From an uncultured Gammaproteobacteria bacterium (lineage in GTDB: Bacteria > Pseudomonadota > Gammaproteobacteria > Eutrophobiales > Eutrophobiaceae): DNA of 64,000 nucleotides. Within the stretch, counting starts at the first letter, position 1. Every line of letters starts with the position of its first letter. Both the position numbers and the translations under genes were made by a program. The stretch is from NCBI GenBank assembly GCA_963976795.1, contig CAXBLT010000006.1:81791-145790 (forward strand), read 5' to 3'. Shown here piece by piece: positions 31,824-61,095 of this stretch. The notes under the pieces are model-generated. The model saw nothing but the letters and a program-made list of their open reading frames with translations, made no database searches and was not told the origin of the DNA.

Positions 31824-31848
31824 ATAGCGATGATTATGATCAAATTTC

Positions 31849-35404: not shown

Positions 35405-35419
35405 AATTAAAATCCTCTA

Positions 35420-38989: not shown

Positions 38990-39049
38990 CGAGCCGAAAT
39001 CAAATACTTCGACTACCCCTAATTATTTATTATTATTTGAATAAAAAAT

Positions 39050-40123: not shown

Positions 40124-40316
40124 AACAACCCTTCTTCATAAAGTAATTCTTAACCAAGAGGATCTAAAGAAGCATTAGTAATCCTATGAATGGTTAACGC
40201 GTCATTCGTATTTGATTACACCCCATAAAAATTAAAGTAGGTAGCTGCTAGATAAGGTCTATCTAACAGCTACCATTGAGGGGGGAGAACAATATTAAAA
40301 CTAATTTATTGTTATG

Positions 40317-41594: not shown

Positions 41595-41682
41595 ATAATA
41601 CTCCTACGTTTTAACAATCGTCCTGCATTGCTGCAGGACATAATGAGTAACTAATACTTTTTTACACAACTACTTAATTAAC

Positions 41683-43825: not shown

Positions 43826-45835
43826 ATGAGTCAATCACTAAAAGAAGCCGACATCAATACACACTTTTATTCCCAAAAAGATGTTGACCAAGCTTGGGAT
43901 AGTTTTCTTTGCTCAGGAGGGGCGTCAAAGAATCTGCCTGTACGCGATATGATAGCCAGCTCATGGGAGCGCTGCCTATCTCAAGGTGTCAATCCTGAGC
44001 AAACTGCAGCGCCGCTCTTAGCCACCGAGGGCACCTTACATATCCTTCGCCAAAATAATACTGATCTCATGAAATGCGCACGACCTGTCTTAGCACAGGC
44101 CAGGGTCTTTTTACGCGATCTTGACACAATATTAATTCTGACTGACTACAACGGGGTCAATCTGGATGTTGTCGGAGATCCTAAGTGTGTTGAAGATGCT
44201 GTCGGAATTGGAATGGTGCCAGGTAGTGGCTGGAAAGAGACTGTTTCCGGATCAAATGCTGTAGGTACAGCGATGGCAACGGGGATGCCTACACAAGTCC
44301 ACGGAGAAGAGCATTTCATACAAGGCTTTAAGCCCTGGACATGCACTGCTGGGATAATAAGCGATCCATATGACAATCAATTGATCGGCGTAATTGACGT
44401 TTCTGGCTTATCAGCCACATTTGATAAATTCCACGTCCCTTTAGTCGTATCATGGGCCAATCAAATTCAATTGTCACTCGCCAAAAACACCTCTGAGCAA
44501 TGGAGTCTCATCAGAGAAAACAGCCAGTGTGACTTTAAAAATAGTCACCGAAATGCTGGGAGAATGTTATTTGATACGCAAGGAAGGCTGGTTGACCACT
44601 CTCAAAATGCCTGTTCAATACTCAATTCACTCGGTATTGGATATGATCTTTCTATGAAGTCTCGCTTATCGCTAGAGCGTTTTGGCGGAGACGAGATTGT
44701 GTATCCTCATGACGCAGGGTTATGGCTATCAAGTGATTGGATCGAACCCGTCAAGGATAAAAACGAGGTGATAGGTTTCAAGATAGAACTACCCACAAAC
44801 AAACGCTCCTCGCAACGAACAAACCCATCGTCTGCTATTGCAGCGGTTAAAATCAACTCACAAGCAGATCCTTTTGGCAAAATATCAGGACAAAGTGCAT
44901 CAGTTAGAGCCAGCATTGAAAAAGCTAGTAAAGCAGCTACGACACCACTTCCTGTTCTAATTTTAGGCGATACAGGTGTCGGAAAAGAAATGTTTGCTCG
45001 AGCTATACATGAAGCGAGTAACTTCGCTAATGGTCCATTTATTGACCTGAACTGTGGCGCTTTCACTAAAGATATTTTAAGCAGTGAACTATTTGGTCAT
45101 GTCGAGGGTGCTTTCACAGGCGCAAAAAGAGGCGGTATGATGGGGAAAATTGAAGCTGCAAATGGCGGCACACTATTTCTGGATGAGATAGGTGAAATGC
45201 CACTTGAGATTCAACCTGTTTTTCTAAGGGTTTTACAAGAAAGAAAGATACATCGTGTTGGTGCTATTGCACCAATTCCAGTCAACTTTAGACTCATTGC
45301 TGCCACAAATAGTTATCTTAAACGAGAAGTTTCTGAAGGCCGATTTAGAAAAGATTTATTCTTCCGTTTATCCACAGTTGCAATTGCGCTTGATCCTCTT
45401 TCAAGACGAAAAGAAGACATTGAAGAGATTGCACACTTAGTTTTAAAAGAAATTCAAAATTCTCAAGAGATTGTGCCTAAACGAATATCCGCCTCTTTAA
45501 TAACCTCACTAAAAAACCGGGAATGGCCAGGCAACATTAGAGAGTTAGTAAATGTGATTGAATGCATGTGTTATATGTCTTCAAATGAGACCCTAACCAT
45601 TGAGGATTTACCTGCCGGTTATCAACCGGGAGAATCACTGATCAGCGGAGTACCTTCTGAACAAAATCAACCGTCTGAGTCTCTATCGAACCTGGATATT
45701 GCAGAACAACAAGCAATTGAAAATGCAATTATTGAGTTTGGTGGCAATATCACTCAAGCAGCTAAAAACCTGGGCATCGCAAAAGGTACCCTCTATCGAA
45801 AAATGAAAAAATATAAATTAGAAAATCCTCGTTAG
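43826..45835 (+). CDS. Sigma-54-dependent enhancer-binding transcriptional activator of the AcoR/AcxR type (N-terminal sensory domain, AAA+ sigma54-interaction domain, C-terminal Fis-type HTH).
   Basis: AAA+ motifs: Walker A 'GDTGVGKE', GAFTGA motif 'GAFTGA', 'GGTLFLDEIGEMP'. C-terminal HTH 'AAKNLGIAKGTLYRKMKKY'. N-terminal '...ASSWERCLSQGVNPE...' as in AcoR-family regulators. Confidence 0.85.
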   Translation: MSQSLKEADINTHFYSQKDVDQAWDSFLCSGGASKNLPVRDMIASSWERCLSQGVNPEQTAAPLLATEGTLHILRQNNTDLMKCARPVLAQARVFLRDLDTILILTDYNGVNLDVVGDPKCVEDAVGIGMVPGSGWKETVSGSNAVGTAMATGMPTQVHGEEHFIQGFKPWTCTAGIISDPYDNQLIGVIDVSGLSATFDKFHVPLVVSWANQIQLSLAKNTSEQWSLIRENSQCDFKNSHRNAGRMLFDTQGRLVDHSQNACSILNSLGIGYDLSMKSRLSLERFGGDEIVYPHDAGLWLSSDWIEPVKDKNEVIGFKIELPTNKRSSQRTNPSSAIAAVKINSQADPFGKISGQSASVRASIEKASKAATTPLPVLILGDTGVGKEMFARAIHEASNFANGPFIDLNCGAFTKDILSSELFGHVEGAFTGAKRGGMMGKIEAANGGTLFLDEIGEMPLEIQPVFLRVLQERKIHRVGAIAPIPVNFRLIAATNSYLKREVSEGRFRKDLFFRLSTVAIALDPLSRRKEDIEEIAHLVLKEIQNSQEIVPKRISASLITSLKNREWPGNIRELVNVIECMCYMSSNETLTIEDLPAGYQPGESLISGVPSEQNQPSESLSNLDIAEQQAIENAIIEFGGNITQAAKNLGIAKGTLYRKMKKYKLENPR

Positions 45836-45918: not shown

Positions 45919-46905
45919 TTATTCATTATTCACAAGCACCATCCCATAAAAACCAGCTTGTTCAATTAGCTCATGTGATTCTACGATTTTATCCAATGCT
46001 ATTATGTGTGCGATCCTGTGCTGTAATAAACCTCTTTCCAGAAAATCTGTGACATCGTAGATTGCATCTGCCTTAGCTGACTCTGGCATCGCATAAACCA
46101 ATACCATGCGTATCGTTAGATCCATAAACATCATTCGTTTAAAAGGTATCACGGGTTCTGGAACCTGCATTGAAGCATAAGTCGCAATCGTAGCACCTAT
46201 ACGTGCCACATCTAAAAGTACAGGCAGATTCCCGCCAAACTCACCATCAATAATACGTTCAACACCCTGACCATTTGTCATTTCAGCAACCGTATCAAGC
46301 AATTCAACTCCTTGATGTGGACAAACTACATCGGCACCCGCAGCATAGCAATGCGCTTCTGCCTCAGAATTACTCGCTGTCGCAATTACATTGGCGCCGG
46401 CATATTTTGCAAGCTGAATAACATAATGACCTACTCTTCCAGCACCGCCCGTTACCAAGATTGTTTGACCTTCGACCGGGCCATCAGCAAAGATACATCG
46501 ATGTGCCGTCATGGTGGGTATCCCTATACACGCACCAATATCAAATCCAATATTATCGGGTAGTAGCACTGCTCTATTGGAATCAACTGACACGTATTCA
46601 GCGGCGGTTCCAAAACGGCGGCCATACTGAGCTTGATAAACCCAAACGCGCTCACCTATCCGCGAATGTGGTACACCACGGCCAACGGCTTCTATTACGC
46701 CTGAGCCATCACTATGAGGGATAATAAAACCATCTTTAAGTAAATCTGGAAACGCACCTGCACGTTTTTTCACATCTGACGGGTGTACTGCAGAATAATT
46801 TAACCGTACTAAAACCTCTCCATGTTCTGGTGAAGGGACATCAAGCTCAACGATATTCAACACATCATGTGCCGAACCCATCTTATTATATTGTGCTGCC
46901 TTCAT
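45919..46905 (-). CDS. MDR-family NAD(P)-dependent oxidoreductase (quinone-oxidoreductase-like), distal gene of the carboxylase operon.
   Basis: 328 aa. GroES-like N-domain and Rossmann motif 'ILVTGGAGRVGHYVIQLAK'. Confidence 0.8.
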   Translation of the reverse strand: MKAAQYNKMGSAHDVLNIVELDVPSPEHGEVLVRLNYSAVHPSDVKKRAGAFPDLLKDGFIIPHSDGSGVIEAVGRGVPHSRIGERVWVYQAQYGRRFGTAAEYVSVDSNRAVLLPDNIGFDIGACIGIPTMTAHRCIFADGPVEGQTILVTGGAGRVGHYVIQLAKYAGANVIATASNSEAEAHCYAAGADVVCPHQGVELLDTVAEMTNGQGVERIIDGEFGGNLPVLLDVARIGATIATYASMQVPEPVIPFKRMMFMDLTIRMVLVYAMPESAKADAIYDVTDFLERGLLQHRIAHIIALDKIVESHELIEQAGFYGMVLVNNE

Positions 46906-46999
46906 TAACTTACCTTTTATCCTTTACTTGATTGTGCATCAAGTCTAATAACCATAATTAAAAGAATATCGCTCATTAATCAACCTGATGAATAGCACA

Positions 47000-48016
47000 C
47001 TATCGGTCATTAACAATAACGATTTTGCCAAAATGCTTAGCTGCAGTGAGATGCTCATAAGCACCCATTGCATCGCTAAATGCAAATGACTTATCAATAG
47101 TTGGCTTAAGATTATTATCAATAATAACCTTGTTCATCGCATTAAACATCTCAACACTACCGACATAAATCCCGTGAACCCGCAGTAGATTAAATATTAC
47201 GGATAAATTAAATGCTGGTCCATCAAACCCGGATAACAATCCAATCATTGAAACGATACCATTGACCTTTGCCGAAGCTATCGATTTTTCAAAAGTGCCT
47301 ACACCACCAACTTCCAATACATTATCAACACCATTTCCATCCGTAATTTTTAAGACTTCATCTTCCCAGTCAGGATGTTCACGATAATTAACTGTATGAT
47401 CAGCACCCATCTTACGAGTCCGTTCTAATTTTTCATCACTGGATGAAGTAATAATAACTCTTGCGCCCAAAGCTTTTGCCAACTGTAAACCAAAAATGGA
47501 AACACCTCCGGTTCCCAACAACAATACTGTATCACCTTTTTTTAAGTCCCCCATTGATACTAATGCATGCCATGCAGTAACGGCGGCGCAAGGCAAAGTC
47601 GCAGCTTCTTCATACGATAATTGTTCAGGAATGGGTAATGCAGCATTTGCTTTTAAAACAAAGTAATCAGCCAAAACACCATTAATTGAACCACCTAATG
47701 CAGAGTGCAAACCTGCCATACTCATCGGTCCGTCAATCCATTCCTGAAAGAAATTACCAACAACCCTATCCCCTACCTTATGAGTTGTAACCGAACTACC
47801 AACAGCAACAACTTCTCCGGCACCATCTGACACAGGAATAATGGGTCTAATATCATTGCGTACATAACCACCTTGTGGAATCAGCAAATCACGAAAGTTA
47901 AGTGAACATGCTTTCATTTTCACCAAAACCTCATCCGCTGCCGGTTTTGGTTCGTTTAACTCGATCAGTTTTATATCTTCAAAACCATCTGTTGTTTGTA
48001 CCTGATATGCACGCAT
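47000..48016 (-). CDS. MDR-family zinc-type alcohol dehydrogenase / quinone oxidoreductase.
   Basis: 338 aa. 'LVKMKACSLNFRDL', 'VLLLGTGGVSIFGLQLAKALGARVI'. Confidence 0.8.
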   Translation of the reverse strand: MRAYQVQTTDGFEDIKLIELNEPKPAADEVLVKMKACSLNFRDLLIPQGGYVRNDIRPIIPVSDGAGEVVAVGSSVTTHKVGDRVVGNFFQEWIDGPMSMAGLHSALGGSINGVLADYFVLKANAALPIPEQLSYEEAATLPCAAVTAWHALVSMGDLKKGDTVLLLGTGGVSIFGLQLAKALGARVIITSSSDEKLERTRKMGADHTVNYREHPDWEDEVLKITDGNGVDNVLEVGGVGTFEKSIASAKVNGIVSMIGLLSGFDGPAFNLSVIFNLLRVHGIYVGSVEMFNAMNKVIIDNNLKPTIDKSFAFSDAMGAYEHLTAAKHFGKIVIVNDR

Positions 48017-48090
48017 AAACTTTTAAACCTCTTTAAAAATTATTGTGAATTGTAAAGCGTTAAATTTCTGTTTGTAAATCACAGTCTAAT

Positions 48091-49356
48091 TTATTTCACA
48101 CGCCGCATAACAGAAACGCAGTTTGTTACCCCTGAACCGCCTATGTTAACGGTCATCGCCAATTCCGGCTGCCCTTTTGCAGCAACACCAATAGGATCGC
48201 CGATTAGTTGTTTATAAGCCAACGCATGCATAGATGCACCTGTTGCGCCAACAGGGTGCCCCTTTGACTTAAGACCTCCGGAAAGATTGATAGGACAACT
48301 CCCGTCCGTATCATATTTTCCTTCCATAAAGTCGTACCCTGCACGACCCGATTCAGATAGTCCCATCGCTTCTGCACAGAGCATTTGGTTTATGGTAAAG
48401 CAATCGTGAACTTCTGCTAACTCCATATCTGTCACCTTCACCCCTGCCTCGGTACACGCTTGTTGTACAGCGTGTTTTGCCGCTTGAAGCTCATGTAAGG
48501 TTTCTTTGCGCTCGCTCATCATCATACGTTGTGTCACATGACCTATACCAGAAAGTTCAACAGCATGGTTAAAGTTCGCTTTAGCATTCTCAGTTGATGT
48601 AAGAACAACTGCAGCAGCGCCATCAGAAATCAAAGAACAATCATGCAGTCTTAATGGTGGTGCAATCAGTGGATTACTGCCTTTACCTGAGTCAGGTAAA
48701 TCAAGAATAGCATCTGCGGTCACTAATTGCTTTTTATCAGGCAGGCTTCCAGGCCCAAAGTGAGCTAGCGGATTATGAATGCCATTGCGATAATTTTGCG
48801 CAGCAATATGCGCAAACATAATGCGAAGTTCTTCATCACTCATTCCATGTTTTGCTTGATAGGCTTTTGCTAACTCACCAAACAAGCCAGGGAAAGTCAC
48901 ACCCATAGAACCCTCTTCGGGCCAATATGAACTACACGCCAAGGCATGAGTAACACCTTTAGTATCCAACAGACTCATTTTCTCAACACCAAGCGCAAGG
49001 ACATTCTTAAAACGACCACTGGCCACGGCATAAGCTGCGTTATATATAGCAACAGATGAAGTTGCACAAGCGCCTTCCGTACGTGTTGTTGGTTTATAGA
49101 GTAATCCATCGGGATCAATTTCCAACGCCAATGGTGCCACATGTTCCTGATTTACGAACATGGAAGGAGAACAAGAGCCGAGCCAAACTGCATCGATATC
49201 CTTTGCCTCCAGACCGGCATCGGCAATTGCACCTGCCCCTGCTTCTATTATTAATTCATAAAACGATTTTAAATCTTCTACTTCACCTGTTTCTCTATCA
49301 CGCTTAACAAACGCACCGAACTGAGTATTGTGTGCACCAACTATACTAATATCCAT
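48091..49356 (-). CDS. Thiolase-superfamily protein (SCP-x / nonspecific-thiolase-like), a candidate beta-ketoacyl-CoA thiolase.
   Basis: 421 aa. The N-terminus 'MDISIVGAHNTQFGAF' and C-terminal 'NLSGGLKSKGHPVGATG' are thiolase-fold signatures. Confidence 0.8.
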   Translation of the reverse strand: MDISIVGAHNTQFGAFVKRDRETGEVEDLKSFYELIIEAGAGAIADAGLEAKDIDAVWLGSCSPSMFVNQEHVAPLALEIDPDGLLYKPTTRTEGACATSSVAIYNAAYAVASGRFKNVLALGVEKMSLLDTKGVTHALACSSYWPEEGSMGVTFPGLFGELAKAYQAKHGMSDEELRIMFAHIAAQNYRNGIHNPLAHFGPGSLPDKKQLVTADAILDLPDSGKGSNPLIAPPLRLHDCSLISDGAAAVVLTSTENAKANFNHAVELSGIGHVTQRMMMSERKETLHELQAAKHAVQQACTEAGVKVTDMELAEVHDCFTINQMLCAEAMGLSESGRAGYDFMEGKYDTDGSCPINLSGGLKSKGHPVGATGASMHALAYKQLIGDPIGVAAKGQPELAMTVNIGGSGVTNCVSVMRRVK

Positions 49357-49431
49357 CTGACTGTCCTCTCCACATAAAAACGTGGATTAAAAATGTGAAA
49401 AATAAAATTAAAGATATAACAAAATTTGAAT

Positions 49432-50997
49432 TTATATTTTGCGATCAAGCTTGTCCCAAAAATATTTACGGATTTCTTTTTTCAATACTTTGCCAACAGA
49501 GCTACGAGGTAATTCATCCCAAATTAAAATCTCTTTTGGCGATTTAACGCTGCCTAATTTTTGCTTACAAAGTTCAATTATTTCTTGTGTATTCGGTTTA
49601 ATAGCAGCTTCCTTTAGTTCAACTACGGCTGTTACTTGCTCACCCCATTTTTCATCCGGGATACCAATAACTGCACAGTCTTTTATTGCTGGATGCCCCC
49701 AGATAAGTTGTTCAATCTCCCCGGGGTACACATTAAACCCGCCAGATATGATCATATCGCGTTTGCGATCGACAATAGATAAATATCCATCATTATCAAA
49801 GACGCCAACATCTCCGGTTTTTTGCCAGCCATTTACACGTATCTCTTGCGTTGCATCTGGGTTATTGAAGTAACAACGCATTATTAAGTCCCCTTTTACG
49901 GCAATTTCACCTTCTTTTCCTGCTGGAAGCGTATTCCCATCATCATCCAGAATTGCTAGATCAATATGTGGTGCTGTTTTGCCACAAGAACGAATCCTGG
50001 AAGAATCACCGCTTTCAACTGCATGAACATGATCATCAACTGAGAGAAAAGTACAAACCATTGGCGATTCTGCCTGCCCATATGTTTGAACCATCACAGG
50101 ACCAAAAACCTCAATGGCTTCTTTGAGTTTTTCTACGGACATCGGCGCAGCGGCATACCAAAAATACCTTAAACTTGAGTAATCATAATTCCTGACGCCT
50201 TCATGAGCCAATAGCATATATATGGCTGTGGGTGGCAAAAATAGATGCGTGACCTTATATTTTTCGATAACAGATAATAAAATATCGGGGATCATGCCTT
50301 CCATTACAACGATGTTTGAGCCTTGTAAAATCGGTGCAAATGACGCAACACCTGCGGCATGCGTCATCGGCGCACTCACAAGATAGCATGAAGGTATATC
50401 AGGTTCTGGCATTAATTCTATTTGAATAGACACCATCGATTGCCATGTTAAGTATCCCCACTCTGCTAATTTAGAATCACCTGTTGTACCTCCCGTTGGG
50501 AACAAACTTACTAATTTAGACTCATCTCTTCTTGTTAGCTTTTCTTCTGTGTCTTGATCAATACTCTTTATAAAATTTTCAATTGCAACTCCAGCTATTT
50601 CTTTAGCTGTAAATGACAAACAATTCTCACCCTTATATTGTTCGCCAAGCTCAGGATTAGAAGCAAGGATGTTCGAGTCAACAAAAAGTAACCTTGTATC
50701 AGATTTTTTTAGTAACTTTAAATTAGCTTCCAGAGTATTTCTAACATTGAGTGGTAACCAGATCGCACCTAATTGGGAAATTGCAAAAATACAGCAATAG
50801 GCGGCAACAGAATTTGGCGCATAACTTGCGACAACATCCTGCTCATGAACACCTTTGTCTCTTAACTGTACGGCAATATGTTGTGCTACATTAAATACTT
50901 CTTGATAGCTAAGTGAAACATCATTGTCGATATCGATAAACTTTGCATCACCCTCGGCAAACGCAGGGCTATGTTCGAGAAAATCAATAATGCGCAT
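49432..50997 (-). CDS. AMP-dependent acyl-CoA ligase, a candidate beta-ketoacid--CoA ligase.
   Basis: 521 aa. AMP-binding motifs 'FPTGGTTGDSK' and 'YGQAESPM'. C-terminal 'SSVGKVLKKEIR'. Confidence 0.85.
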   Translation of the reverse strand: MRIIDFLEHSPAFAEGDAKFIDIDNDVSLSYQEVFNVAQHIAVQLRDKGVHEQDVVASYAPNSVAAYCCIFAISQLGAIWLPLNVRNTLEANLKLLKKSDTRLLFVDSNILASNPELGEQYKGENCLSFTAKEIAGVAIENFIKSIDQDTEEKLTRRDESKLVSLFPTGGTTGDSKLAEWGYLTWQSMVSIQIELMPEPDIPSCYLVSAPMTHAAGVASFAPILQGSNIVVMEGMIPDILLSVIEKYKVTHLFLPPTAIYMLLAHEGVRNYDYSSLRYFWYAAAPMSVEKLKEAIEVFGPVMVQTYGQAESPMVCTFLSVDDHVHAVESGDSSRIRSCGKTAPHIDLAILDDDGNTLPAGKEGEIAVKGDLIMRCYFNNPDATQEIRVNGWQKTGDVGVFDNDGYLSIVDRKRDMIISGGFNVYPGEIEQLIWGHPAIKDCAVIGIPDEKWGEQVTAVVELKEAAIKPNTQEIIELCKQKLGSVKSPKEILIWDELPRSSVGKVLKKEIRKYFWDKLDRKI

Positions 50998-51027
50998 TTT
51001 GTTTCCTGAGCAAAACTTGCCCGGAGA

Positions 51028-51882
51028 CTAAGTTCTTAAACGAGAAAGCGTATCAAGTACTAATTCAGGTGTTGTATCTTCAGGAATAGTAAGATAGTTA
51101 AAATTATTTCCTGATGAAACAGTTTCCTGCCCTTCCCATAATGGTTTGCTGATATCCTTACCGATAGAACTTTCTGTTCCTGCGCTGTCTACAGGGGCAA
51201 TAGAGAAATTAACATCTTCAGGTACACTAAAACCAGCATCTGAAAAAGGAAGGTGTAATCCCACTGACCAACGGTAATGTTTAGTAACGTTATATATCGG
51301 CTGATACCAGGTCAATTCTTCTATGCTTTGGGGCATTGAATCAGGATCTTCTCTCAGTAACACACCTGATAAATCCACTTCGCTAAAGTATCTCAAATAA
51401 TCAGCTACATACATTGAGACAGTGTCTATATGTGTTTCTTCGGGTTCTACATCGACCCCATTAGCAGCCTTGTTTGCTTTGATTAACAAACAACGTGGTG
51501 ACGGTATAACTAATACAATCGGCACTGAGCCGCCATAGTTATTCCCAATTGCCGTTAGCACTTCTGCTAACAACTCCCTTGGAGCAAAAGCTTCCAGCAT
51601 TGTTTTTACCGCAACTGTTATGCGTTTTTTACCAGCCATCGATGGGATAGCTTCTTCATCTTCTTGCATCCAATGATGAAACAGATCCCAGATGTCGATT
51701 ACAACAACGTCTGCATTTACTAAACCATGTGCCTGTCCATAAAAAGACATATAAGCAGGAGGATTAGTCCATGGGTTTTCTCCTTCTGCTAATAACAACT
51801 TTTTGGTATAGGCATTGAAATCAATCCAAAGCTTAGGAGGTCCGTCTCCAACAGATAAATAGTTAACTAAATCTATAGCCAT
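51028..51882 (-). CDS. Conserved hypothetical protein (about 32 kDa). It is a candidate fifth (epsilon-like) subunit of the carboxylase complex. This is inferred from position and size only.
   Basis: 284 aa. It is 2 bp downstream of the HyuB-like gene and 30 bp upstream of the CoA ligase. Acetophenone carboxylase has a 34-kDa epsilon subunit in the same operon position (remembered from the literature, not verified by alignment). Confidence 0.45.
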   Translation of the reverse strand: MAIDLVNYLSVGDGPPKLWIDFNAYTKKLLLAEGENPWTNPPAYMSFYGQAHGLVNADVVVIDIWDLFHHWMQEDEEAIPSMAGKKRITVAVKTMLEAFAPRELLAEVLTAIGNNYGGSVPIVLVIPSPRCLLIKANKAANGVDVEPEETHIDTVSMYVADYLRYFSEVDLSGVLLREDPDSMPQSIEELTWYQPIYNVTKHYRWSVGLHLPFSDAGFSVPEDVNFSIAPVDSAGTESSIGKDISKPLWEGQETVSSGNNFNYLTIPEDTTPELVLDTLSRLRT

Positions 51883-51883
51883 T

Positions 51884-54163
51884 TTACTTACGTTTATCCT
51901 TAGCTTCTATACCAGATTTTTTTCTAACGGCTTCAAGTTCTTCTTCAAGCTTTCTAATTTCGACATCTTTAGGATGTTCAAAATAAACCGGCCCCGGGTT
52001 GTTAGGATCACGTTTATCATCAGGGCTACCTGCATAAACTGTACTCAAATCACTATTCCAGGAACCATAAAAAGGAATATCTTTTGGAGGAACATCGCTC
52101 ACATGCTTCTTGACAAACTCAGCATACGGGACACCTTGTTTCTTGCGTTGTTCTCTGTAAGCATCGCGCAGTTTTTTGGTTCCTTCTTCATCAACAACCA
52201 ATGTCTCTTCATCAAATTCAACTTTATAAAGCTTCTTTGCCCACTCAGGAGTCGTCAACCGTTCTTCGATATCTTTAATAACCAAAGCAGGGTCACGTTC
52301 TAATGGATCGCCATAACCACCACCTGAACCTTGAGAGATCATGTACAACTCACCACGTTTTGAGATAGAGAAACCCATCCCCATGTGGTGCGACGTATAA
52401 TTTGCACCTTCATAAGGCTCTTCGTTCATCGTCTCTTCAATCGAGTGTTTAAATTTATCCGGATCTTTCAGCATGATGTCATAAACATCGACACCAGAAA
52501 CTTTACATAAGGGGTATGCCCCTGGTGCATAACCACCAAATAAACCTGAGAGTGATGGAACTTTGGATCCGACACAAGTCGTCATAAAACCCCACTGGTC
52601 ACTATCTTTCGTCGCAACCATTTGTGTATAGCCCATACCACCACGATACTTTCCTGCTGCTTGTGTATTCGTCGTCATTTTTTTCGAGACCAACTGCAAG
52701 AATGGCACATCTTCTTCATTCATCTCTTGCTCACCAATATCTGCCATTGAAGCAAAAATAGGAGCCAAGGCATGTTCACCGTCCATATCCATACGTGCAC
52801 CACCGCCCATACCATTTAGATCTGCACAAAGGTTACCGAGCATCTCGCCATGTTGACTTACGCCACCCCAAATATAAGTACAGATCATGTTAAACCAGGG
52901 TGCTAAAACACGCGTGTATTTAACCGGTACACTATACAAGAATTTAGCGGTAGCTTGTTGAGCAACAGTAAAGGATAAAAAGATCGACATCAAACTCTGA
53001 GAGTTAGGTGCATCAACACTGGCATTAACAATCGAATATGGAGGTGTAATCACTTCAATCGGTGCAAAACCTGCCTGACCTCGTGGCAAATCTGGCCAGA
53101 TATGGTTTAGAAATGCTTGAGACATCATGCCTTTACATCCTGGTATAGCCGTATTGATCGCACGGTTAGTAATCTCAGGACTAGAACCTCTAAGGTCGAA
53201 TATCAAGCGGTCGTCTTTTTTCGTCAAGGTACAATTCAATTTGATTAATGCATTTTCGCGTAAGGTACTATCCATTGTGCAGTAGGTACGAACGGTCATG
53301 TCAGGCCATTCCTTAATACGACGACGTACTTCAGTCATTACATCATCATTAGTACTACGTAGGCATGCGATTAATGCATCAGGGCCATCTAATGCCAAAA
53401 TTTCCCTAAGGCGTTTTTCAAGACGCATACAAGCGAAGAGCTTTACCTTCATATCTTCGTATTGCAGCTTTGGTTCACGCACCGAGTTTTGCAAAAAGGT
53501 TAGAAGATCTTTTTTAATCTCATAGTTTTCTACAACCCTGAAAGGCGACATCTTCAGGCCTTCATCAAACGGTGATTCCGCCATTGATGGCATACCACCG
53601 GGTTCGATGGCTCCATTTTCACCTTCATGTACAGTCGACGCCACCCAAGCAACCAGTTCGCCTTCATGAAAGATAGGCATAATCATACTTTGGTCGGTAT
53701 TATGTACATTACCGTAACGTGAATCATTATGAATAAATCCATCACCCTGTTTCAAACCAACAGTATGTTCATTGATCCAGTTCTTAATAATGAATTTAAT
53801 CGGATGGTGAACTACTACATTAAAAATAAGTACACCGCCAGCACTACCAATAGTTAAATCACCCGAGGCTGAATAGATCCCGGTAATAACGTCCCCCCAT
53901 TTTGCACCTGGGGCGGCACCCATTTGTTCCAGCATCTCATAACTCTCGTCGCAAGCAGATTGCATACGGTCACGGATTGAAGCCATCTGATGTGGATCAT
54001 TATGTTTCTTAATAGACTCTGTTTCGCGATCTGTAATCGGCATAATGTCATGCGATTGCATTATTTCCTGATCCGGTCCGAGGAATAAAGTCGTTTCCTT
54101 TAGAAATTTTGCAACTAATTCCTGATCTTCAAGAACTGCTTCTGCACTAAGTTTATCGTTCAT
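51884..54163 (-). CDS. Hydantoinase B / oxoprolinase-family subunit (acetone/acetophenone carboxylase HyuB-like subunit).
   Basis: 759 aa. HyuB core motif region 'GFIHNDSRYGNVHNTDQSMIMPIFHEGELVAWVASTVHEGENGAIEPGGMP'. Confidence 0.85.
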   Translation of the reverse strand: MNDKLSAEAVLEDQELVAKFLKETTLFLGPDQEIMQSHDIMPITDRETESIKKHNDPHQMASIRDRMQSACDESYEMLEQMGAAPGAKWGDVITGIYSASGDLTIGSAGGVLIFNVVVHHPIKFIIKNWINEHTVGLKQGDGFIHNDSRYGNVHNTDQSMIMPIFHEGELVAWVASTVHEGENGAIEPGGMPSMAESPFDEGLKMSPFRVVENYEIKKDLLTFLQNSVREPKLQYEDMKVKLFACMRLEKRLREILALDGPDALIACLRSTNDDVMTEVRRRIKEWPDMTVRTYCTMDSTLRENALIKLNCTLTKKDDRLIFDLRGSSPEITNRAINTAIPGCKGMMSQAFLNHIWPDLPRGQAGFAPIEVITPPYSIVNASVDAPNSQSLMSIFLSFTVAQQATAKFLYSVPVKYTRVLAPWFNMICTYIWGGVSQHGEMLGNLCADLNGMGGGARMDMDGEHALAPIFASMADIGEQEMNEEDVPFLQLVSKKMTTNTQAAGKYRGGMGYTQMVATKDSDQWGFMTTCVGSKVPSLSGLFGGYAPGAYPLCKVSGVDVYDIMLKDPDKFKHSIEETMNEEPYEGANYTSHHMGMGFSISKRGELYMISQGSGGGYGDPLERDPALVIKDIEERLTTPEWAKKLYKVEFDEETLVVDEEGTKKLRDAYREQRKKQGVPYAEFVKKHVSDVPPKDIPFYGSWNSDLSTVYAGSPDDKRDPNNPGPVYFEHPKDVEIRKLEEELEAVRKKSGIEAKDKRK

Positions 54164-54177
54164 AGTTTATTACCTCG

Positions 54178-56325
54178 TTATTTCTTTGCTTCGTCGCGCA
54201 GGAACCAAACGGCACCCTGTTCAGCAGACACATAATTCCAACCTTTTTCGATAAGGTAGGTCGTTACATCAGATGCCACGATACCCGGGCCTTCAATTTG
54301 AGTTCCCGCTGGAATATCATCTTTATTCCAAACTGGCGTATCAATCGCCTTACTTTCACCAACAAAATAACACTTACGTGTTGATGATGGTTTCGGCGGC
54401 GCCTTTCGTTTATCTTCGGCTATAGGCTTAATATGTTTAAAGTGAACCGTGTCATGCTCCACATATGAAGCGACGCGAATGGTATTGATACGAATACCTG
54501 CCTCAGGGGCCTGGCTACCTTCACCAAAACGCTTGCCATAATCTGTAGAAAACAGATCGAGTATATTCAATACATCTAACGCTGATTCGACAGTGTGTTT
54601 TGGTATAACAACTGTGGTTTGTACAAGCTGGTTACCGTAACGCATATCAAGCTCAAGCGAATGTAGAATATCGCCTTCGTCTGCACCCTGTCTGGCTAAG
54701 TCAGCTCTGCCTTTTTCACTTAGACCAGCGACAATGTCGTTGAATCGAGCATAATTATCAAACACATGTCGACTATTAGAATCATAAAGAACCATGAATA
54801 ATGAGGCTTCATGAATATGCATCTGATGCATATTACCCGCACCAACCGCAGAGAATACAGAACTCATCGGCGTTGCTAAAATCTTGTTGATGTTCAAACG
54901 GCCCGCGATACCACAGCAATGTAATGGACCATTACCACCATAAGCCAGCATGGTAAAATCTTCAGGGTCATAACCTCGAGCACGTAACTCGGTATTCACA
55001 CCATTAGCCATATTAGCATCAACTTTTTCCTTAATCATCAGGGCAGCTTCAACCACTTCAACATCCAGGTCATCACAAAGTGTTTCTTCGATTGCGAAGT
55101 TTGAACGCTTGGGATTCAGAGGAATTGCACCACCTGCATAATTCTCTGCATCGAGATAACCCAAAACCAAATCTGCATCAGTAACAGTCGGGTTCATGCC
55201 ACCACGGTCATAACATGCTGGACCTGGATCAGAACCTGCACTCTTAGGCCCTACAGCAACCGTGTTATACATACGATCATAAGAGGCGATAGAACCACCA
55301 CCTGCACCCAATGTCACCAAGTGAACCATCGGTACAGAAACCATCCAACGATCAATAACAGGGTTGAAGTCATAATGTTTAATACCACCCTCAACAACGA
55401 TACCAATGTCATAACTGGTACCACCCATATCGGTAGCGACAACACTACCCAGATCAGCTTCTTTAGCTAGATGTTCAGAAGCACTGATCCCAGAAACTGG
55501 ACCAGAGTGAATAGTTTGCAACGCATCAGTTGAGTTTAACTGCGCCATACCACCTGAGTTATGAATAACCAACATGGGTTTCACGTAAGCATGTGCGCGC
55601 AGATTTTGTTCCAACTGAGTCATCGCGTGGTACATAGTCGAATGCAAATAACCATCAACGACTGCTGAAGAGGCTCGAACATATTCACCTTTTCGCCCTG
55701 CAACACGATGAGAAAGAATGACCGGGATAGCACCTAACAGATGCGAGGGATATTCCTCAAGAATAATCTGCTCAACACGTTTTTCATTCATTGGGTTAAC
55801 CACTGAATTAACAAAACAGATAACAATAACTTGAGCCCCTTTATCAAATAAGGTCCTGATCTTAAGTCGGACATCATCTTCATTAAGTGGCATAACGACC
55901 TTACCTTCAAAGTCCAGACGCTCACGCACACCTTCTATCATATTTGGCAATACTAATGGATCAGGACGTCGGGCATCAGGCAAATTGGCCTTACCTAACT
56001 TGTCCAGACCTTCACCATAACCACGCGCACGACTAAGAGGCACTGTTGCTTCAAAACCTGCTGTAACCAGCATGCCCATGCGAGGGCCTTTGTGTTCTAT
56101 TAATGCATTTGTCCCAAGCGTTGTCGCATATCGAACCGAATCAACTTCAGATAGAATTTCTTCCATAGTAATATTCAATTCGCTATATGCTTTTTCTACA
56201 GCCTCATTAAACCCTAAGGCTAAATTTTGGTGTGTCGTTAACGCTTTGGTTTCGATATATTTATTATCCCAAACCAAAAAACAATCGGTAAAAGTGCCGC
56301 CGATATCAACTGATATTCGTTTCAT
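54178..56325 (-). CDS. Hydantoinase A / oxoprolinase-family subunit (HyuA-like, 715 aa).
   Basis: N-terminal Hydant_A_N motif 'MKRISVDIGGTFTDCFLV'. C-terminal hydantoinase-A domain. Confidence 0.85.
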   Translation of the reverse strand: MKRISVDIGGTFTDCFLVWDNKYIETKALTTHQNLALGFNEAVEKAYSELNITMEEILSEVDSVRYATTLGTNALIEHKGPRMGMLVTAGFEATVPLSRARGYGEGLDKLGKANLPDARRPDPLVLPNMIEGVRERLDFEGKVVMPLNEDDVRLKIRTLFDKGAQVIVICFVNSVVNPMNEKRVEQIILEEYPSHLLGAIPVILSHRVAGRKGEYVRASSAVVDGYLHSTMYHAMTQLEQNLRAHAYVKPMLVIHNSGGMAQLNSTDALQTIHSGPVSGISASEHLAKEADLGSVVATDMGGTSYDIGIVVEGGIKHYDFNPVIDRWMVSVPMVHLVTLGAGGGSIASYDRMYNTVAVGPKSAGSDPGPACYDRGGMNPTVTDADLVLGYLDAENYAGGAIPLNPKRSNFAIEETLCDDLDVEVVEAALMIKEKVDANMANGVNTELRARGYDPEDFTMLAYGGNGPLHCCGIAGRLNINKILATPMSSVFSAVGAGNMHQMHIHEASLFMVLYDSNSRHVFDNYARFNDIVAGLSEKGRADLARQGADEGDILHSLELDMRYGNQLVQTTVVIPKHTVESALDVLNILDLFSTDYGKRFGEGSQAPEAGIRINTIRVASYVEHDTVHFKHIKPIAEDKRKAPPKPSSTRKCYFVGESKAIDTPVWNKDDIPAGTQIEGPGIVASDVTTYLIEKGWNYVSAEQGAVWFLRDEAKK

Positions 56326-56382
56326 AATCTACTTTCCTATAACTTTTTAGTAGTTTGACTTATTGTTCGTAGTATTTATTAA

Positions 56383-56790
56383 CTAGTGGCTATGTTTATG
56401 ACGCTCACGTTCACCTAAAACGTCAGGACCAATCGTTGCCTCTGTAATCTCTTCTCGATGACTCCACTGCTCTTTCAGAGCGTCTACATCAACTTCCATA
56501 TCATAGAGTGGCTCATGATTTGGCATAGTGTTCTCAACTTCAACCTGCGTACCACAACTTGGACAATAAAACTCAAGAATATTGACCCAGTCTTTATCAG
56601 GACAAAATGTGAATTTATATTTTTCGGGATCGATAATATGAGGATGGATATCTGCCGGGTCGCGATTATAAACCAACAAACCTTCCTTGTAATTCCCACG
56701 AGCAGAGCCAATCACATGCTCACAAACACGACATTCCCAATTTTCTGTATCCAAATCGATACGAAGGTATTCGGTCATTAAAACTTTCAT
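56383..56790 (-). CDS. Acetone/acetophenone carboxylase gamma-subunit-like small zinc-ribbon protein.
   Basis: 135 aa with two Cys pairs 'CRVCEH' and 'CPSCGT'. 'EFYCPSCGTQVEVE' parallels acetone carboxylase gamma 'EYFCPECGTLHDVE'. It overlaps the upstream HyuA-like gene by 1 nt. Confidence 0.75.
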   Translation of the reverse strand: MKVLMTEYLRIDLDTENWECRVCEHVIGSARGNYKEGLLVYNRDPADIHPHIIDPEKYKFTFCPDKDWVNILEFYCPSCGTQVEVENTMPNHEPLYDMEVDVDALKEQWSHREEITEATIGPDVLGERERHKHSH

Positions 56791-58727
56791 TATTTAGCCC
56801 CCTTAGTCAGACAGATATCACCTGCCTCTGTCACAACAAATTCCCAACCTTCACGTACAAGGCAGGTAAAGTAATCTTCTTCAATAACTGCTGGTCCAGC
56901 AGCATGTGCACCCGGCTTCATCTCATTCACGCTATAGACTGAAACGTCCTGGCTCTTCAGATCACTGCCAACAATTGTTCGTGTACCTGATGCTGTAGCC
57001 GCCTTGCCTTTTTTGGTTTTGACCTGCTTGTTATCTTCAGTCTTCAAAGGTTTAGTCGCTATCACTTCGAGCGTGACTGAATCCGCTTTTTCTAAAGCTT
57101 TTGGCAATGTCACTTTCCCATCTAATTGATGAGTAGATTCTTCTGAACCTGACTCACTTACCAACTGTGCACTTATTTCAATGTCGCCTTTAGCGAAACC
57201 TTCTGCAAACATATCACGTTCAGCACGTTCAATAAGATCATCGTAAGCTGATTTGAGCGAGTCTTGATTATTAGCAGATAGCACGACAGCATAGCTCTGC
57301 CCAATATCGCAAGATCCTATACCGAAAGCACTGAACACAGCGGCAGTCTTTGGCACATAGACTGTATTAATACCTGCCAACTCTGCTACGCCACAAGCAT
57401 TCATGGGGCCAGCGCCACCAAATGCCAATAGCACAGTATCATTCGTAACATCACCAAAACCTTTGAGACCGTCAGCAATCTTTTGCTCATAAGCATCACG
57501 CAGTTTGTGCAGTGCTTCATCAACGGAAATGCCTAATGGTGATGCAACATTTTCATCTATAGCTGCACGACCACGCTCAATATCGAGCTTTAAGCCACCA
57601 CCGAAATAGGTTGATGGATCGAGCAAGCCCAAGAGTAGATTAACATCTGTAATTGTTGAACTTTTACCACCTCGACCAAAACTAGCTGGCCCTGGAACTG
57701 CGCCAACACTTTCAGGTCCTACCTGAATAGCACCGTCTTTAACAGACAGAATAGAACTGCCACCAACACCTTCACTGTGAATCTCACACAAACCAAAAGA
57801 AATAGGCACGCCTTCTACTTTACCGCGTCGCTCTTCATTTAGATTCAAATCAACAAGGTGACCAATATCAGTTGTCGTTCCACCCACATCCATAGTCATT
57901 GCGTTTGAAAGACCATATTGCTTACAGAATGTCTTCACACCTTCCATTCCGCCGCGTGGACCTGAGCTATACGTCTTTAGCGCGATTGTCTTTGCGACAC
58001 GCGATGCGTTGCCATCATTACGAAATATCAGCAATGGATTTTTCGTACGATACTCACGTAGTCGATTCTCAGCATTGTAAAGAAAGCTTTCCATAGCAGG
58101 ATGCAAAAATGAGTTGGTCAATGCAGTCCAACCGCGTCTTTCAGTTGACACATCATCAACCAGCTCGCTAGCAAACAGCATCGGTACGGCACCTAACAAG
58201 TGACGCGGATAAACATCAAATGCCAGTGTTTTGAATTGGGACTCAAACTTCGCAGCCTGATCAGCATCGAAACACACAACGAGGCGATTGGCACCCATAG
58301 ATGTAAGACCGGTAATAACGGTCGCTGTATCGGCAGCTTTTGCTTCATCACCCAAATCGGCAAGATCAACTTCAGAGATTCGGTCGCCGACTAAGAAGTC
58401 GAACAAATCTTCATCTTGCGCGCGCATACGCTTAGCTAAGTCTGCATTGCCTTTATTCAGTATCAATCCCAGTTTTGGCCCCTTACGCTCTACAATAGCG
58501 TTAGTCCCCTGAGTGGTTGAATAACGAATATGCTCAACTTCCATCAGAAGTTTTGCGACATCTTCTTCACCGTAAATCACAGTTGAGATTGATTTTAGAC
58601 CGTCGAAAAAACACTTACTTAAATCATACGGCGTAGTAAGCGTTTTTGTTTTATAAACACTTTTATCTTTCAGTACACATATATCAGTCAACGTTCCACC
58701 GTTGTCGATATTAACTAACATTCCCAT
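56790..58727 (-). CDS. Second hydantoinase A-family subunit (HyuA-like paralog, 645 aa), first gene of the operon.
   Basis: N-terminal 'MGMLVNIDNGGTLTDICVL' (Hydant_A_N). It is paralogous to 54178..56325. Confidence 0.85.
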   Translation of the reverse strand: MGMLVNIDNGGTLTDICVLKDKSVYKTKTLTTPYDLSKCFFDGLKSISTVIYGEEDVAKLLMEVEHIRYSTTQGTNAIVERKGPKLGLILNKGNADLAKRMRAQDEDLFDFLVGDRISEVDLADLGDEAKAADTATVITGLTSMGANRLVVCFDADQAAKFESQFKTLAFDVYPRHLLGAVPMLFASELVDDVSTERRGWTALTNSFLHPAMESFLYNAENRLREYRTKNPLLIFRNDGNASRVAKTIALKTYSSGPRGGMEGVKTFCKQYGLSNAMTMDVGGTTTDIGHLVDLNLNEERRGKVEGVPISFGLCEIHSEGVGGSSILSVKDGAIQVGPESVGAVPGPASFGRGGKSSTITDVNLLLGLLDPSTYFGGGLKLDIERGRAAIDENVASPLGISVDEALHKLRDAYEQKIADGLKGFGDVTNDTVLLAFGGAGPMNACGVAELAGINTVYVPKTAAVFSAFGIGSCDIGQSYAVVLSANNQDSLKSAYDDLIERAERDMFAEGFAKGDIEISAQLVSESGSEESTHQLDGKVTLPKALEKADSVTLEVIATKPLKTEDNKQVKTKKGKAATASGTRTIVGSDLKSQDVSVYSVNEMKPGAHAAGPAVIEEDYFTCLVREGWEFVVTEAGDICLTKGAK

Positions 58728-58845
58728 ATCAATTTACCTGTTTTGATTTTTGTTTTGCTTCACTTAACTGGACATTTAATATTTTCTAGATTCAGAAAGA
58801 AATTAAATTTAATTTTTTGTAACTTTTCAGCCATATACTACTAAT

Positions 58846-58861
58846 AGCATTTATCATGCCA
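58846..58861 (-). promoter_or_regulatory. Candidate sigma-54 (-24/-12) promoter, TGGCAT-gataa-ATGCT, about 120 nt upstream of the first carboxylase gene.
   Basis: The minus strand reads TGGCATGATAAATGCT. GG and GC are spaced exactly as in the TGGCAC-N5-TTGCW consensus. Confidence 0.5.
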
Positions 58862-58962
58862 TAAACTTAATCAACACTTTTTAAACTATATCTAACTGTT
58901 TTATTAGATAGTTTGCTAAAAGAATTAAAATAATTCTTGCATATTGCTCGTTCTATAATCGA

Positions 58963-58996
58963 ACGTTTGAATGCAGATCGTACTAATTTCAAACGT
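58963..58996. promoter_or_regulatory. Inverted repeat ACGTTTGAA-N16-TTCAAACGT, about 110 bp upstream of the sigma54 promoter. Candidate enhancer (UAS) for the AcoR-type activator.
   Basis: Read from the DNA. Its position relative to the -24/-12 element is typical for bEBP sites. It also lies just after the stop of the convergent reductase gene, so it could alternatively be an atypical terminator hairpin. Confidence 0.3.
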
Positions 58997-60659: not shown

Positions 60660-60675
60660 TGGATATCCTCTAAAA

Positions 60676-60754
60676 ATTGTTGACAATACTATGTGGTAAA
60701 TGCCAGTTTAGTTTGCTTAAATTAGTTTTTCAACCGTATATTGTCGACAATTAT
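60676..60754. promoter_or_regulatory. Bipartite operator copy 3: ATTGTTGACAATA (60676..60688) and TATTGTCGACAATTA (60738..60754), upstream of the DUF3237 gene.
   Basis: Same as copies 1 and 2. The spacer 'aaattagtttttcaaccgtat' is nearly identical to the copy 2 spacer. Confidence 0.45.
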
Positions 60755-61095
60755 GCCAGAGAGAGGCCACTATTATTGTAAGCCGAACAACGCGTAGTAT
60801 AGCTTTTTAGCATTTAAGTCTTAATTATAAACGGACATTAACATAATATTAACAAACCAAAACACTTGGTTTTCATTAATCCATACAGATCGAATGCAGT
60901 CATAAATAATACTGATATTAAACGTCCGATTCATTTTCGATCGTTTTACCTGAATACAGGCGAAACCTCTAATTGTTCAAAGACTAAAAGAATCAAGCAG
61001 ATAAAGGCAAAAAAAACGTCATTACGATTCTGGCATAATGGTTGCTGGCACAGAGCGGATTAATAATAAATTAAATAAATATTTAACGAGGAGAA

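Follow-up and report, generated by a model that had tools for sequence, protein, structure and literature searches.

A putative sigma-54-controlled, five-subunit ketone carboxylase related to acetophenone carboxylase in marine Gammaproteobacteria

Which ketone might be the substrate of a carboxylase-like gene block in an uncultured gammaproteobacterium, and how is the block related to the ATP-dependent ketone carboxylases, which bring about the oxygen-independent activation of inert ketones with CO2 fixation? The block lies in a 64,000-nt stretch of contig CAXBLT010000006.1 (hereafter the window, within which all coordinates are given) and consists of nine open reading frames (ORFs) between positions 45919 and 58727, all on the minus strand. 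A first-pass annotation had read it as a nine-gene, sigma-54-driven operon for a five-subunit ketone carboxylase resembling acetophenone carboxylase (Apc), together with a coenzyme A (CoA) ligase, a thiolase and two dehydrogenases. Our analysis indicates that the block probably encodes a five-subunit ketone carboxylase of the Apc type, controlled by sigma-54 and acting on a hydrophobic, probably non-aromatic methyl ketone.

The ORFs and their Pfam families agreed with the nine co-directional genes first described (Table 1), and identical copies of the locus are present on Tara Oceans scaffolds. The tight spacing ascribed to the block holds for the first five genes, designated A to E, which are separated by -1, 57, 14 and 1 nt, but not for those from gene E onward, where the gaps are 30, 75, 74 and 94 nt. 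A nine-gene operon is plausible; no intergenic terminators were found, the counts in a scan for terminators and internal promoters being at or below chance. Membership of the last two genes is uncertain because the first of them, encoding the medium-chain dehydrogenase/reductase (MDR) protein MDR1, is limited to the closest relatives of the locus and is preceded by a sigma-70-like hexamer pair at 48078-48049.

Subunits of the carboxylase cassette

It was found that each of the four core proteins matched a different chain of the Apc core structure 5L9W best, in apcABCD order, and that the chains of acetone carboxylase (Acx) scored about half as high. The gene A protein matched 5l9w_b (ApcA, alpha-prime) with 281 bits compared to 145 bits for Acx, the gene B protein matched 5l9w_C (ApcB, gamma) with 99 bits compared to 30 bits for Acx gamma, the gene C protein matched 5l9w_B (ApcC, alpha) with 536 bits compared to 275 bits for Acx beta, and the gene D protein matched 5l9w_A (ApcD, beta) with 275 bits compared to 121 bits for Acx alpha. 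In this comparison with PDB sequences, the hydantoinase and oxoprolinase chains scored lower than, or similarly to, the Acx chains. The reading as a five-subunit ketone carboxylase of the Apc type, accompanied by a CoA ligase and a thiolase, has therefore survived those objections raised beforehand that were examined, such as HyuA and HyuB proteins closest to hydantoinases or oxoprolinases (Apc chains ranked first, then Acx) or a 135-aa protein unrelated to Apc gamma (the four zinc cysteines are present).

These cysteines (C20, C23, C76 and C79 of the gene B protein) align with those of Apc gamma and are invariant in 69 orthologues. Residues H154, D157 and H179 of the gene D protein, invariant in 79 orthologues, align with the Mn/Fe ligands H150, D153 and H175 of the HyuB-type subunit of Acx (PMC10865871); the same metal triad is conserved in ApcD and does not discriminate between Apc and Acx. 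The gene order apcABCD(E) is a hallmark of Apc-type clusters, and an R/KERiDsxG fingerprint that is present in alpha and absent from alpha-prime is a signature of the family (PMC5214803). In the window, the order is alpha-prime, gamma, alpha, beta and epsilon, and the fingerprint occurs as RERLDFEG at residue 134 of the gene C protein, with no match in the gene A protein. The AcxABC enzymes of Xanthobacter autotrophicus and Aromatoleum aromaticum (5SVB, 5M45) belong to the same superfamily and have the His/Asp/His ligands and the gamma zinc ribbon in common with the window proteins, but they have three subunits encoded in the order acxA-B-C, without alpha-prime or epsilon, whereas the window has five genes with gamma between both HyuA genes. 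Furthermore, Acx gamma, at about 168 aa, is long; the 135-aa protein of the window does not have its N-terminal extension of about 50 aa, and the alignment starts at about residue 69 of the Acx chain.

The resemblance to Apc is nevertheless distant. NCBIfam models assigned the four proteins one-to-one, with scores of 338 for ApcA (cut-off 1250), 119 for ApcB (250), 578 for ApcC (1500) and 306 for ApcD (1500), so that on these scores the locus reads as an Apc homologue and not an equivalog. In comparison with L086 (L-numbers denote retrieved related loci), a genuine apc locus close to that of A. aromaticum strain EbN1, the identities were 32.7% for A, 41.9% for B, 39.6% for C and 29.1-29.5% for D, and the beta subunit has 759 aa compared to 684 aa in Apc. 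In the gene A protein, two of the three proposed bicarbonate-binding residues of Apc are replaced (E248 by S254 and K281 by D287), and the replacements are invariant in 64 clade members. It was also observed that with D287 the gene A protein regains the 'GGTxxD' motif that is usual in HyuA and missing from genuine ApcA. Therefore, the Apc architecture proposed at first pass stood as regards the set and order of subunits, whereas orthology did not, the locus representing a distant sister clade with 29-42% identity.

The fifth subunit, the gene E protein, was not recognizable by sequence. It had no match in Pfam, NCBIfam or PDB sequences, BLAST gave no match to ApcE, and searches of PDB sequences with phmmer and with a 47-sequence profile of the gene E family yielded nothing at E values up to 10. 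About 97 database clusters of this protein are all labelled hypothetical. The NCBIfam ApcE model NF042977 gave no match to the gene E protein, whereas genuine ApcE, used as a positive control, scored 428.6 bits; this control is the product of the gene after apcD in L086, which also scored 465 bits to the ApcE structure 9FOU. Genuine apc loci, 80 in number, were obtained from metagenomes by using as a query the ApcC sequence of EbN1 rebuilt from a printed PDB alignment. An AlphaFold2 model of the gene E protein, built on its family alignment, predicts a barrel of the uroporphyrinogen decarboxylase (URO-D) type, with a predicted local distance difference test score (pLDDT) of 92.1 and a predicted template modelling score (pTM) of 0.91. 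In a Foldseek search of the PDB with this model, 9FOU ranked first (E 6.8e-9, TM 0.66-0.68, 12% identity), and the uroporphyrinogen decarboxylases ranked behind it. Comparison of a profile of 35 aligned ApcE orthologues with the gene E family by hhalign gave a weak signal (62.8% probability, E 7e-5, 162 co-linear columns), including an NVA[KR]xxR motif that is common to the two families and among the most conserved positions of both. The position of gene E is constant in all 80 related loci. Although not a member of the ApcE family by sequence, the gene E protein is probably the equivalent of ApcE, to judge from predicted fold, size and gene position, and a very remote homologue of it. This agrees with the earlier description of a fifth subunit of unknown family, as in Apc. 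No paper on the 9FOU structure was found in a literature search, and what epsilon does in Apc is still called elusive.

When one genome per species was searched with the epsilon-like family, 141 species genomes proved to contain relatives. Their hosts comprise marine Gammaproteobacteria metagenome-assembled genomes (MAGs; many of them Porticoccus and 'Thiotrichaceae' UBA bins), Thalassotalea and some Alphaproteobacteria, and a second group consists of Zoogloea, Methyloversatilis, Aromatoleum diolicum, Azotobacter and Xanthobacter. Locus comparisons were made with 80 retrieved related loci, the cassette being scored where enough flank was present, and in all of these the A-B-C-D-E cassette was intact and in the same order. 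Within the clade the alpha subunit is 74-100% identical, whereas its identity to 70 genuine ApcC sequences, themselves 58-100% alike, is 35-41%; the epsilon-like proteins of the clade's two sub-groups are 33-38% identical. By these identity ranges and the bit scores, on which the delimitation rests, the locus is a member of a sister clade of Apc that is discrete and tightly conserved.

Clusters of the apcABCD(E) type were recognized in 2017 as a diverse 'acetophenone carboxylase-like' group that had one characterized member and a fifth subunit either absent or highly divergent (Weidenweber et al. 2017, PMC5214803), close ApcE orthologues being present in only two organisms (PMC5214803). The window locus is one of that loosely defined group. 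What is new here is the delimitation of a conserved sister clade within it, with an epsilon family of its own that was identified structurally, a fixed alternative substrate pocket, conserved sigma-54 control, non-orthologous downstream enzymes and linkage to a transporter. A literature search, including Porticoccus, Zoogloea and Methyloversatilis, found no paper on the clade.

Table 1. Positions of the carboxylase gene block, its control elements and neighbouring features in the window
Feature	Position	Strand	Size, evidence or location
Gene A, alpha-prime, ApcA-like second HyuA paralogue	56790..58727	-	645 aa; Pfam Hydantoinase_A
Gene B, gamma, zinc ribbon	56383..56790	-	135 aa; PF08882 Acetone_carb_G, 117.8 bits
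Gene C, alpha, ApcC-like HyuA, putative ketone kinase	54178..56325	-	715 aa; Pfam Hydantoinase_A
Gene D, beta, ApcD-like HyuB	51884..54163	-	759 aa; Pfam Hydantoinase_B
Gene E, epsilon-like, URO-D-type TIM barrel (predicted)	51028..51882	-	284 aa; without Pfam family
FadD-type acyl-CoA ligase	49432..50997	-	521 aa; AMP-binding domains
SCP2/SCP-x-type thiolase	48091..49356	-	421 aa; Thiolase_N and Thiolase_C_1
MDR1, zinc-free quinone-oxidoreductase-like reductase	47000..48016	-	338 aa; ADH_N and ADH_zinc_N
MDR2, zinc-free quinone-oxidoreductase-like reductase	45919..46905	-	328 aa; ADH_N and ADH_zinc_N
Candidate sigma-54 -24/-12 element TGGCAT-N5-ATGCT, TGGCATgataaATGCT	58846..58861	-	about 120 nt upstream of the gene A ATG
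Candidate upstream activator site, palindrome CGTTC-N7-GAACG	58949..58965	-	about 90 nt upstream of the -24 element
Sigma-54-dependent activator	43826..45835	+	Sigma54_activat 212.9 bits, GAF, HTH_8; GAFTGA motif
AmeABCD-type four-part transporter	36551..43332	-	Pfam and NCBIfam
DUF1302 component of transporter	41683-43332	-	
DUF1329 component of transporter	40317-41594	-	
BNR/YCF48-like component of transporter	39050-40123	-	
HAE3 resistance-nodulation-division (RND) component of transporter	36551-38989	-	
3-Oxoacid CoA-transferase A and B (ScoAB/PcaIJ)	34754..36124	-	TIGR02429 252 bits, TIGR02428 322 bits, both above cut-off
CurA/PTGR-type NADPH enone reductase	59009-60022	-	NCBIfam CurA 360 bits (cut-off 440); ADH_N_2
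DUF3237 protein	60201-60686	-	Pfam DUF3237

Promoter and regulator

The candidate -24/-12 element in front of gene A has the correct GG/GC spacing and two mismatches to TGGCAC-N5-TTGCW. Within the window alone, it is not significant, as 39 two-mismatch matches were found compared to 35 expected. However, the site proposed at first pass gains support because it is positionally conserved: in about 55 of 64 related loci, a site with at least 8 of the 10 consensus positions lies 99-180 nt upstream of the gene A start, and many of these are a perfect TGGCAC-N5-TTGC, so that the GG at -24 and the GC at -12 recur with canonical spacing in orthologous positions. Such a site occurs in about 10% of random 460-nt windows of related loci, a background estimated by a cruder scan with stop-to-stop ORF starts, which missed several of the sites just described. 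An alignment of upstream regions showed that the palindrome listed as a candidate activator site is identical in L013 and L039 and partly kept in L007 and L009, and that an AT-rich block upstream of the -24 element is common to close relatives.

The sigma-54 activator of the AcoR/AcxR type, said at first pass to be encoded about 13 kb away, was confirmed and is of the AcxR/MimR type. Convergent with the gene block, its gene lies 83 nt past the 3' end of the block, the promoter being about 13 kb away. The identical activator protein in L001 is recorded as having a MimR_N domain, and a homologous GAF/MimR_N activator adjoins the cassette in both sub-groups of the clade. The regulator of acetone carboxylase, AcxR, is itself sigma-54-dependent, and regulation of this type would be common to the two systems. 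In contrast, the apc-bal genes of EbN1 are associated with the two-component system AdiRS (PMC4729919), and in L086 a sensor kinase gene follows the ligase gene, whereas the predicted control in the window is by a sigma-54 activator with a GAF domain and not by a two-component system.

The streamlined Porticoccus loci L035 and L041-L043 lack the sigma-54 site, and an activator is likewise missing within 10 kb; this suggests that their cassettes are expressed constitutively or under a different control. It was observed that these loci, on chromosomes of 1.3-1.4 Mb, keep the cassette, ligase, thiolase and transporter. A separate observation concerns TGGCATAATGGTTGCT at 61031-61046 on the plus strand of the window, a one-mismatch match to the sigma-54 -24/-12 consensus that is closer to consensus than the site of the operon and lies about 50 nt upstream of a monomeric isocitrate dehydrogenase gene (61096-63336).

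Proposed reaction and substrate

The cassette would encode an ATP-dependent, biotin-independent carboxylase with an alpha/alpha-prime/beta/gamma core (genes C, A, D and B) and a separate epsilon-like subunit (gene E). By analogy with Apc, which in carboxylating acetophenone with bicarbonate turns 2 ATP into 2 ADP, ATP would be spent by the ASKHA-type kinase subunits, with alpha phosphorylating the ketone and alpha-prime phosphorylating bicarbonate, and the activated ketone and bicarbonate species would then combine to a beta-ketoacid. The HyuB-type beta subunit appears to retain its His/Asp/His metal site, gamma would be a structural zinc-ribbon protein, and epsilon, again by analogy with Apc, would be needed for activity. 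The beta-ketoacid would be converted to its CoA ester by the FadD-type ligase or by the nearby ScoAB-type transferase, and the SCP2-type thiolase would cleave the ester, releasing acetyl-CoA and an acyl-CoA that has lost the original acetyl unit. Transcription would proceed from the sigma-54 promoter, switched on by the adjacent GAF-domain activator, which presumably senses the ketone.

The identity of the ketone was approached through the alpha subunit. The authors of the Apc structure place acetophenone tentatively near L81, F281, N282, P285, I333, Q344 and T345 of Apc-alpha. The corresponding residues of the gene C protein (T72, I272, H273, P276, I324, H335 and L336) do not vary among 70 clade members, and five of these seven putative pocket positions differ from Apc (Table 2). 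The first-pass annotation had proposed an alkyl or aryl methyl ketone; because the pocket is changed, the aryl part of this proposal is unlikely, and the methyl ketone part is kept.

Table 2. Residues at the putative acetophenone-pocket positions of Apc-alpha (Acx residues read by eye from the alignment)
Apc-alpha position	Genuine Apc (n=70)	This clade (n=70)	Acx
81	L/M	T	L
281	F/Y	I	I
282	N	H	V
285	P	P	P
333	I	I	M
344	Q	H	A
345	T/S	L	M

Two further lines of evidence come from gene neighbourhood. In L023, from a marine Gammaproteobacteria MAG, a canonical Acx is encoded about 2 kb downstream of the cassette (14394-18588 of that locus, plus strand); its Acx beta is 67% identical to 5M45_B of X. 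autotrophicus and is followed by a HyuB-type gene, and the alpha subunit of the L023 cassette is 90% identical to that of the window. The cassette is unlikely to duplicate acetone carboxylation because a canonical Acx lies beside it in this locus. Secondly, a module of the AmeABCD type is co-located with the cassette in both the marine and the Betaproteobacteria clades, in contrast to what is known for ApcABCDE. It has the same four components as AmeABCD of Castellaniella defragrans (DUF1302, DUF1329, BNR/COG4447 and HAE3 RND), likewise near a catabolic cluster for a hydrophobic substrate, although the neighbouring genes are those of a ketone carboxylase here and of monoterpene metabolism in Castellaniella; the function in the window is predicted from the genes, and the window RND protein falls below the NCBIfam HAE3 cut-off (156 compared to 352 bits). 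AmeABCD matters for apolar monoterpenes in Castellaniella (PMC6394551), and a similar system is linked to fatty esters in Pseudomonas (bioRxiv 10.1101/2020.07.04.188060). Together, the pocket residues, the Acx of L023 and the AmeABCD-type linkage favour a hydrophobic, non-aromatic methyl ketone. The substrate is most likely neither acetophenone nor acetone, and our best guess is a medium- or long-chain, branched or isoprenoid methyl ketone.

The enzymes encoded after the cassette bear on the fate of the product. A gene for a CoA-activating enzyme follows the five subunit genes in the window as in Apc, but the claim of a Bal-like beta-ketoacid-CoA ligase was not upheld: the best NCBIfam model was PRK06187 (371 bits, cut-off 476), indicating a FadD-type enzyme, whereas genuine apc loci have a PaaK-type ligase, in EbN1 the benzoylacetate-CoA ligase Bal. 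Between the window protein and the PaaK-type ligase that follows apcE in L086 there is no meaningful similarity, and the two are not orthologous. The thiolase scored 359 bits with PRK07516 (cut-off 412), and its translation contains the motifs EGACATSS, with the nucleophile, and EVHDCF, with the catalytic HDCF. The significance of the nucleophilic cysteine and of the HDCF motif is known from SCP2 thiolases. This thiolase is 75-94% conserved across the marine clade, throughout which the ligase and the SCP2 thiolase follow gene E; in EbN1, the thiolase lies outside the operon and was not identified (PMC4729919). A 3-oxoacid CoA-transferase of the ScoAB type follows the cassette instead in L073 (Azotobacter beijerinckii), L005 and L009, and ScoAB homologues were found directly beside the cassette in L005, L009, L073 and L003/L031 and near it in Thalassotalea. 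The ligase/thiolase and CoA-transferase arrangements both fit a beta-ketoacid product, and the ScoAB-type transferase of the window is a possible alternative route for its activation.

The first-pass idea that the two MDR dehydrogenases make the ketone from a secondary alcohol is unsupported because neither protein has the zinc-ligand pattern and both score as quinone oxidoreductases or enoyl reductases. MDR1 scored best with the NCBIfam families PIG3 (183 bits) and acryloyl-CoA reductase (128 bits), and the best families for MDR2 were likewise of the quinone-oxidoreductase/enoyl-reductase kind. In place of GHExxG, MDR1 has SDGAG and MDR2 has SDGSG, and neither has the structural-zinc cysteine cluster; on these grounds, the reading of both as zinc-dependent secondary-alcohol dehydrogenases was rejected. 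Among the related loci, MDR1 is present only in L013, L014 and L039, and MDR2 is present in most marine-clade loci (61-84% identity). The two MDR proteins and the CurA-type protein encoded nearby are more likely, from their sequence families, to be C=C reductases than secondary-alcohol dehydrogenases, and such reductases would fit a substrate with an unsaturated side chain or an enone precursor.

The alternative that best withstands these data is a carboxylase of small aliphatic ketones (acetone, butanone, C3-C5), that is, an alternative to Acx with Apc architecture, in which the ScoAB-type CoA-transferase would activate a short beta-ketoacid and propionyl-CoA would pass to the nearby methylcitrate genes. 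We regard it as unlikely, although several features speak for it: the activator, with its MimR_N and GAF domains, is of AcxR/MimR type, the CoA-transferase directly follows the cassette in L073 (Azotobacter), L005 and L009 and is near it in the window and in Thalassotalea, activation of the beta-ketoacid by such a transferase is possible in both this system and Acx, the window contains a short-chain fatty acid (SCFA) transporter gene and prpB, prpC and prpE-like genes, and one pocket residue, I272, is the same as in Acx. However, with a canonical Acx beside the cassette in L023, there would be no need for a second enzyme acting on the same substrates. Acx of A. aromaticum is described as an acetone/butanone (aliphatic ketone) carboxylase (PMC10865871), and Porticoccus species carry acxABC (2026 Arctic Porticoccus preprint); that preprint treats canonical AcxABC only and mentions deeper clades of uncertain specificity. 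Moreover, the cassette is linked to an RND system for apolar compounds in both clades, the prp genes may have no relation to the cassette, from which more than 15 kb separates them, and the FadD-type ligase and SCP2-type thiolase of the marine operon belong to classes associated with acyl chains that are longer or branched.

Much less probable still is a functional, if divergent, orthologue of Apc that truly carboxylates acetophenone or another aryl methyl ketone and feeds an aromatic acyl-CoA into benzoyl-CoA-type metabolism. Apc is indeed the closest characterized enzyme for the four core subunits, and the gene order and the ApcE-like fifth subunit are the same, but the identity is only 29-42%, the clades are separate (35-41% between and at least 74% within), and the F/Y281, N282 and Q344 of 70 genuine Apc sequences are I, H and H here. 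In addition, the locus has neither a PaaK-type Bal ligase nor an AdiRS-type two-component system, and there are no aromatic-ring or benzoyl-CoA pathway genes within the window. An ATP-dependent amide or lactam hydrolase of the hydantoinase, oxoprolinase or caprolactamase kind is the least credible alternative and was rejected on subunit number, chain scores and downstream enzymes, for although the Pfam families found are Hydantoinase_A and Hydantoinase_B and there are secondary matches to caprolactamase models (423 bits for C and 108 bits for D), the hydrolases of the family have two subunits only and never gamma (PMC5214803), whereas the gamma, alpha-prime and epsilon-like genes are invariably present here, the carboxylase chains score far higher, and the downstream ligase or transferase and thiolase fit a beta-ketoacid product.

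Several points nevertheless weigh against an Apc-type carboxylase of hydrophobic methyl ketones. All four NCBIfam equivalog cut-offs for Apc were missed by a wide margin, and the ApcE model does not match the epsilon-like protein. The Apc pocket was regarded as tentative by its authors, so that the pocket residues argue only indirectly. The Betaproteobacteria clade has neither the ligase nor the thiolase, the ScoAB-type transferases and the nearby SCFA transporter would also suit short-chain beta-ketoacids, and the direction of AmeABCD-type transport, import or export, is unsettled (PMC6394551; bioRxiv 10.1101/2020.07.04.188060). Finally, every member of the clade is known from sequence alone, from which we infer the chemistry, the class of substrate and the signal that regulates the genes.

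A bolder proposal, which we advance tentatively and consider rather unlikely, is that the clade represents the missing enzyme of a marine pathway in which methyl ketones of long-chain, branched or isoprenoid structure are degraded by carboxylation. Phytol and carotenoids could give rise to such ketones, and the subterminal oxidation of alkanes could supply 2-alkanones as substrates. It was reportedly proposed decades ago, without an enzyme, that a marine denitrifier carboxylates 6,10,14-trimethylpentadecan-2-one, and our literature search found no papers on the carboxylation of isoprenoid ketones or of methyl ketones derived from alkanes.

Neighbouring genes and meaning of the clade

Upstream of the cassette in the window are the genes for the CurA-type enone reductase and the DUF3237 protein. 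This pair is kept upstream only in L007, L009, L011, L013, L014 and L039, and it may be associated with the pathway. On the other side, the region 22068-36124 contains, apart from the ScoAB-like genes, genes for a 148-aa protein, a glutathione S-transferase, an SCFA transporter of the AtoE type, a GntR regulator, prpB and prpC, phosphoenolpyruvate synthase and its regulator, a PrpE-like ligase and a ligase resembling malonyl-CoA synthase. In two other loci, a gene for a CobW/COG0523 metallochaperone GTPase was observed directly after the epsilon-like gene (L005, 10894-12153; L056, about 10900-12200; both on the plus strand), an adjacency that hints at dedicated metal delivery to the carboxylase. 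The flanking genes of the Betaproteobacteria A. diolicum and Methyloversatilis, encoding CobW, GGDEF/EAL, catalase-peroxidase and Fic proteins, gave no clue to the substrate.

At the far end of the window, an ORF of 1135 aa (514-3921, minus strand) contains EGF/hEGF repeats of eukaryote type together with He_PIG and cadherin-like Ig domains. The stretch around it is GC-rich, unlike the rest of the window (0.49 compared to 0.39-0.43), and directly beside the ORF is a cluster of tRNA-Lys, -His, -Arg and -Pro genes (4212-4632, minus strand). The ORF may encode a horizontally acquired surface adhesin.

The clade provides a well-defined second example beside the sole characterized enzyme of the Apc type, and it extends from the Porticoccaceae of the ocean to Zoogloea, Methyloversatilis, Azotobacter and Xanthobacter. 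Because cultured and genetically tractable hosts exist, the substrate can be found; cultured carriers include Porticoccus litoralis DSM 25064, Thalassotalea sp. 42_200_T64, Aromatoleum diolicum 22Lin, Zoogloea dura, Azotobacter vinelandii and Xanthobacter oligotrophicus. Its identification would show what determines specificity in this class of enzyme and which features of the epsilon subunit are essential, and it could reveal an unrecognized sink for marine or wastewater ketones. If the proposal of long-chain or isoprenoid ketones in the sea is true, the Apc-type carboxylases would have a second class of substrates, served by an epsilon subunit of its own with a URO-D fold that escapes sequence searches and by a dedicated AmeABCD-type transporter, and such a system would be widespread among the Porticoccaceae associated with hydrocarbons and the Betaproteobacteria of wastewater.

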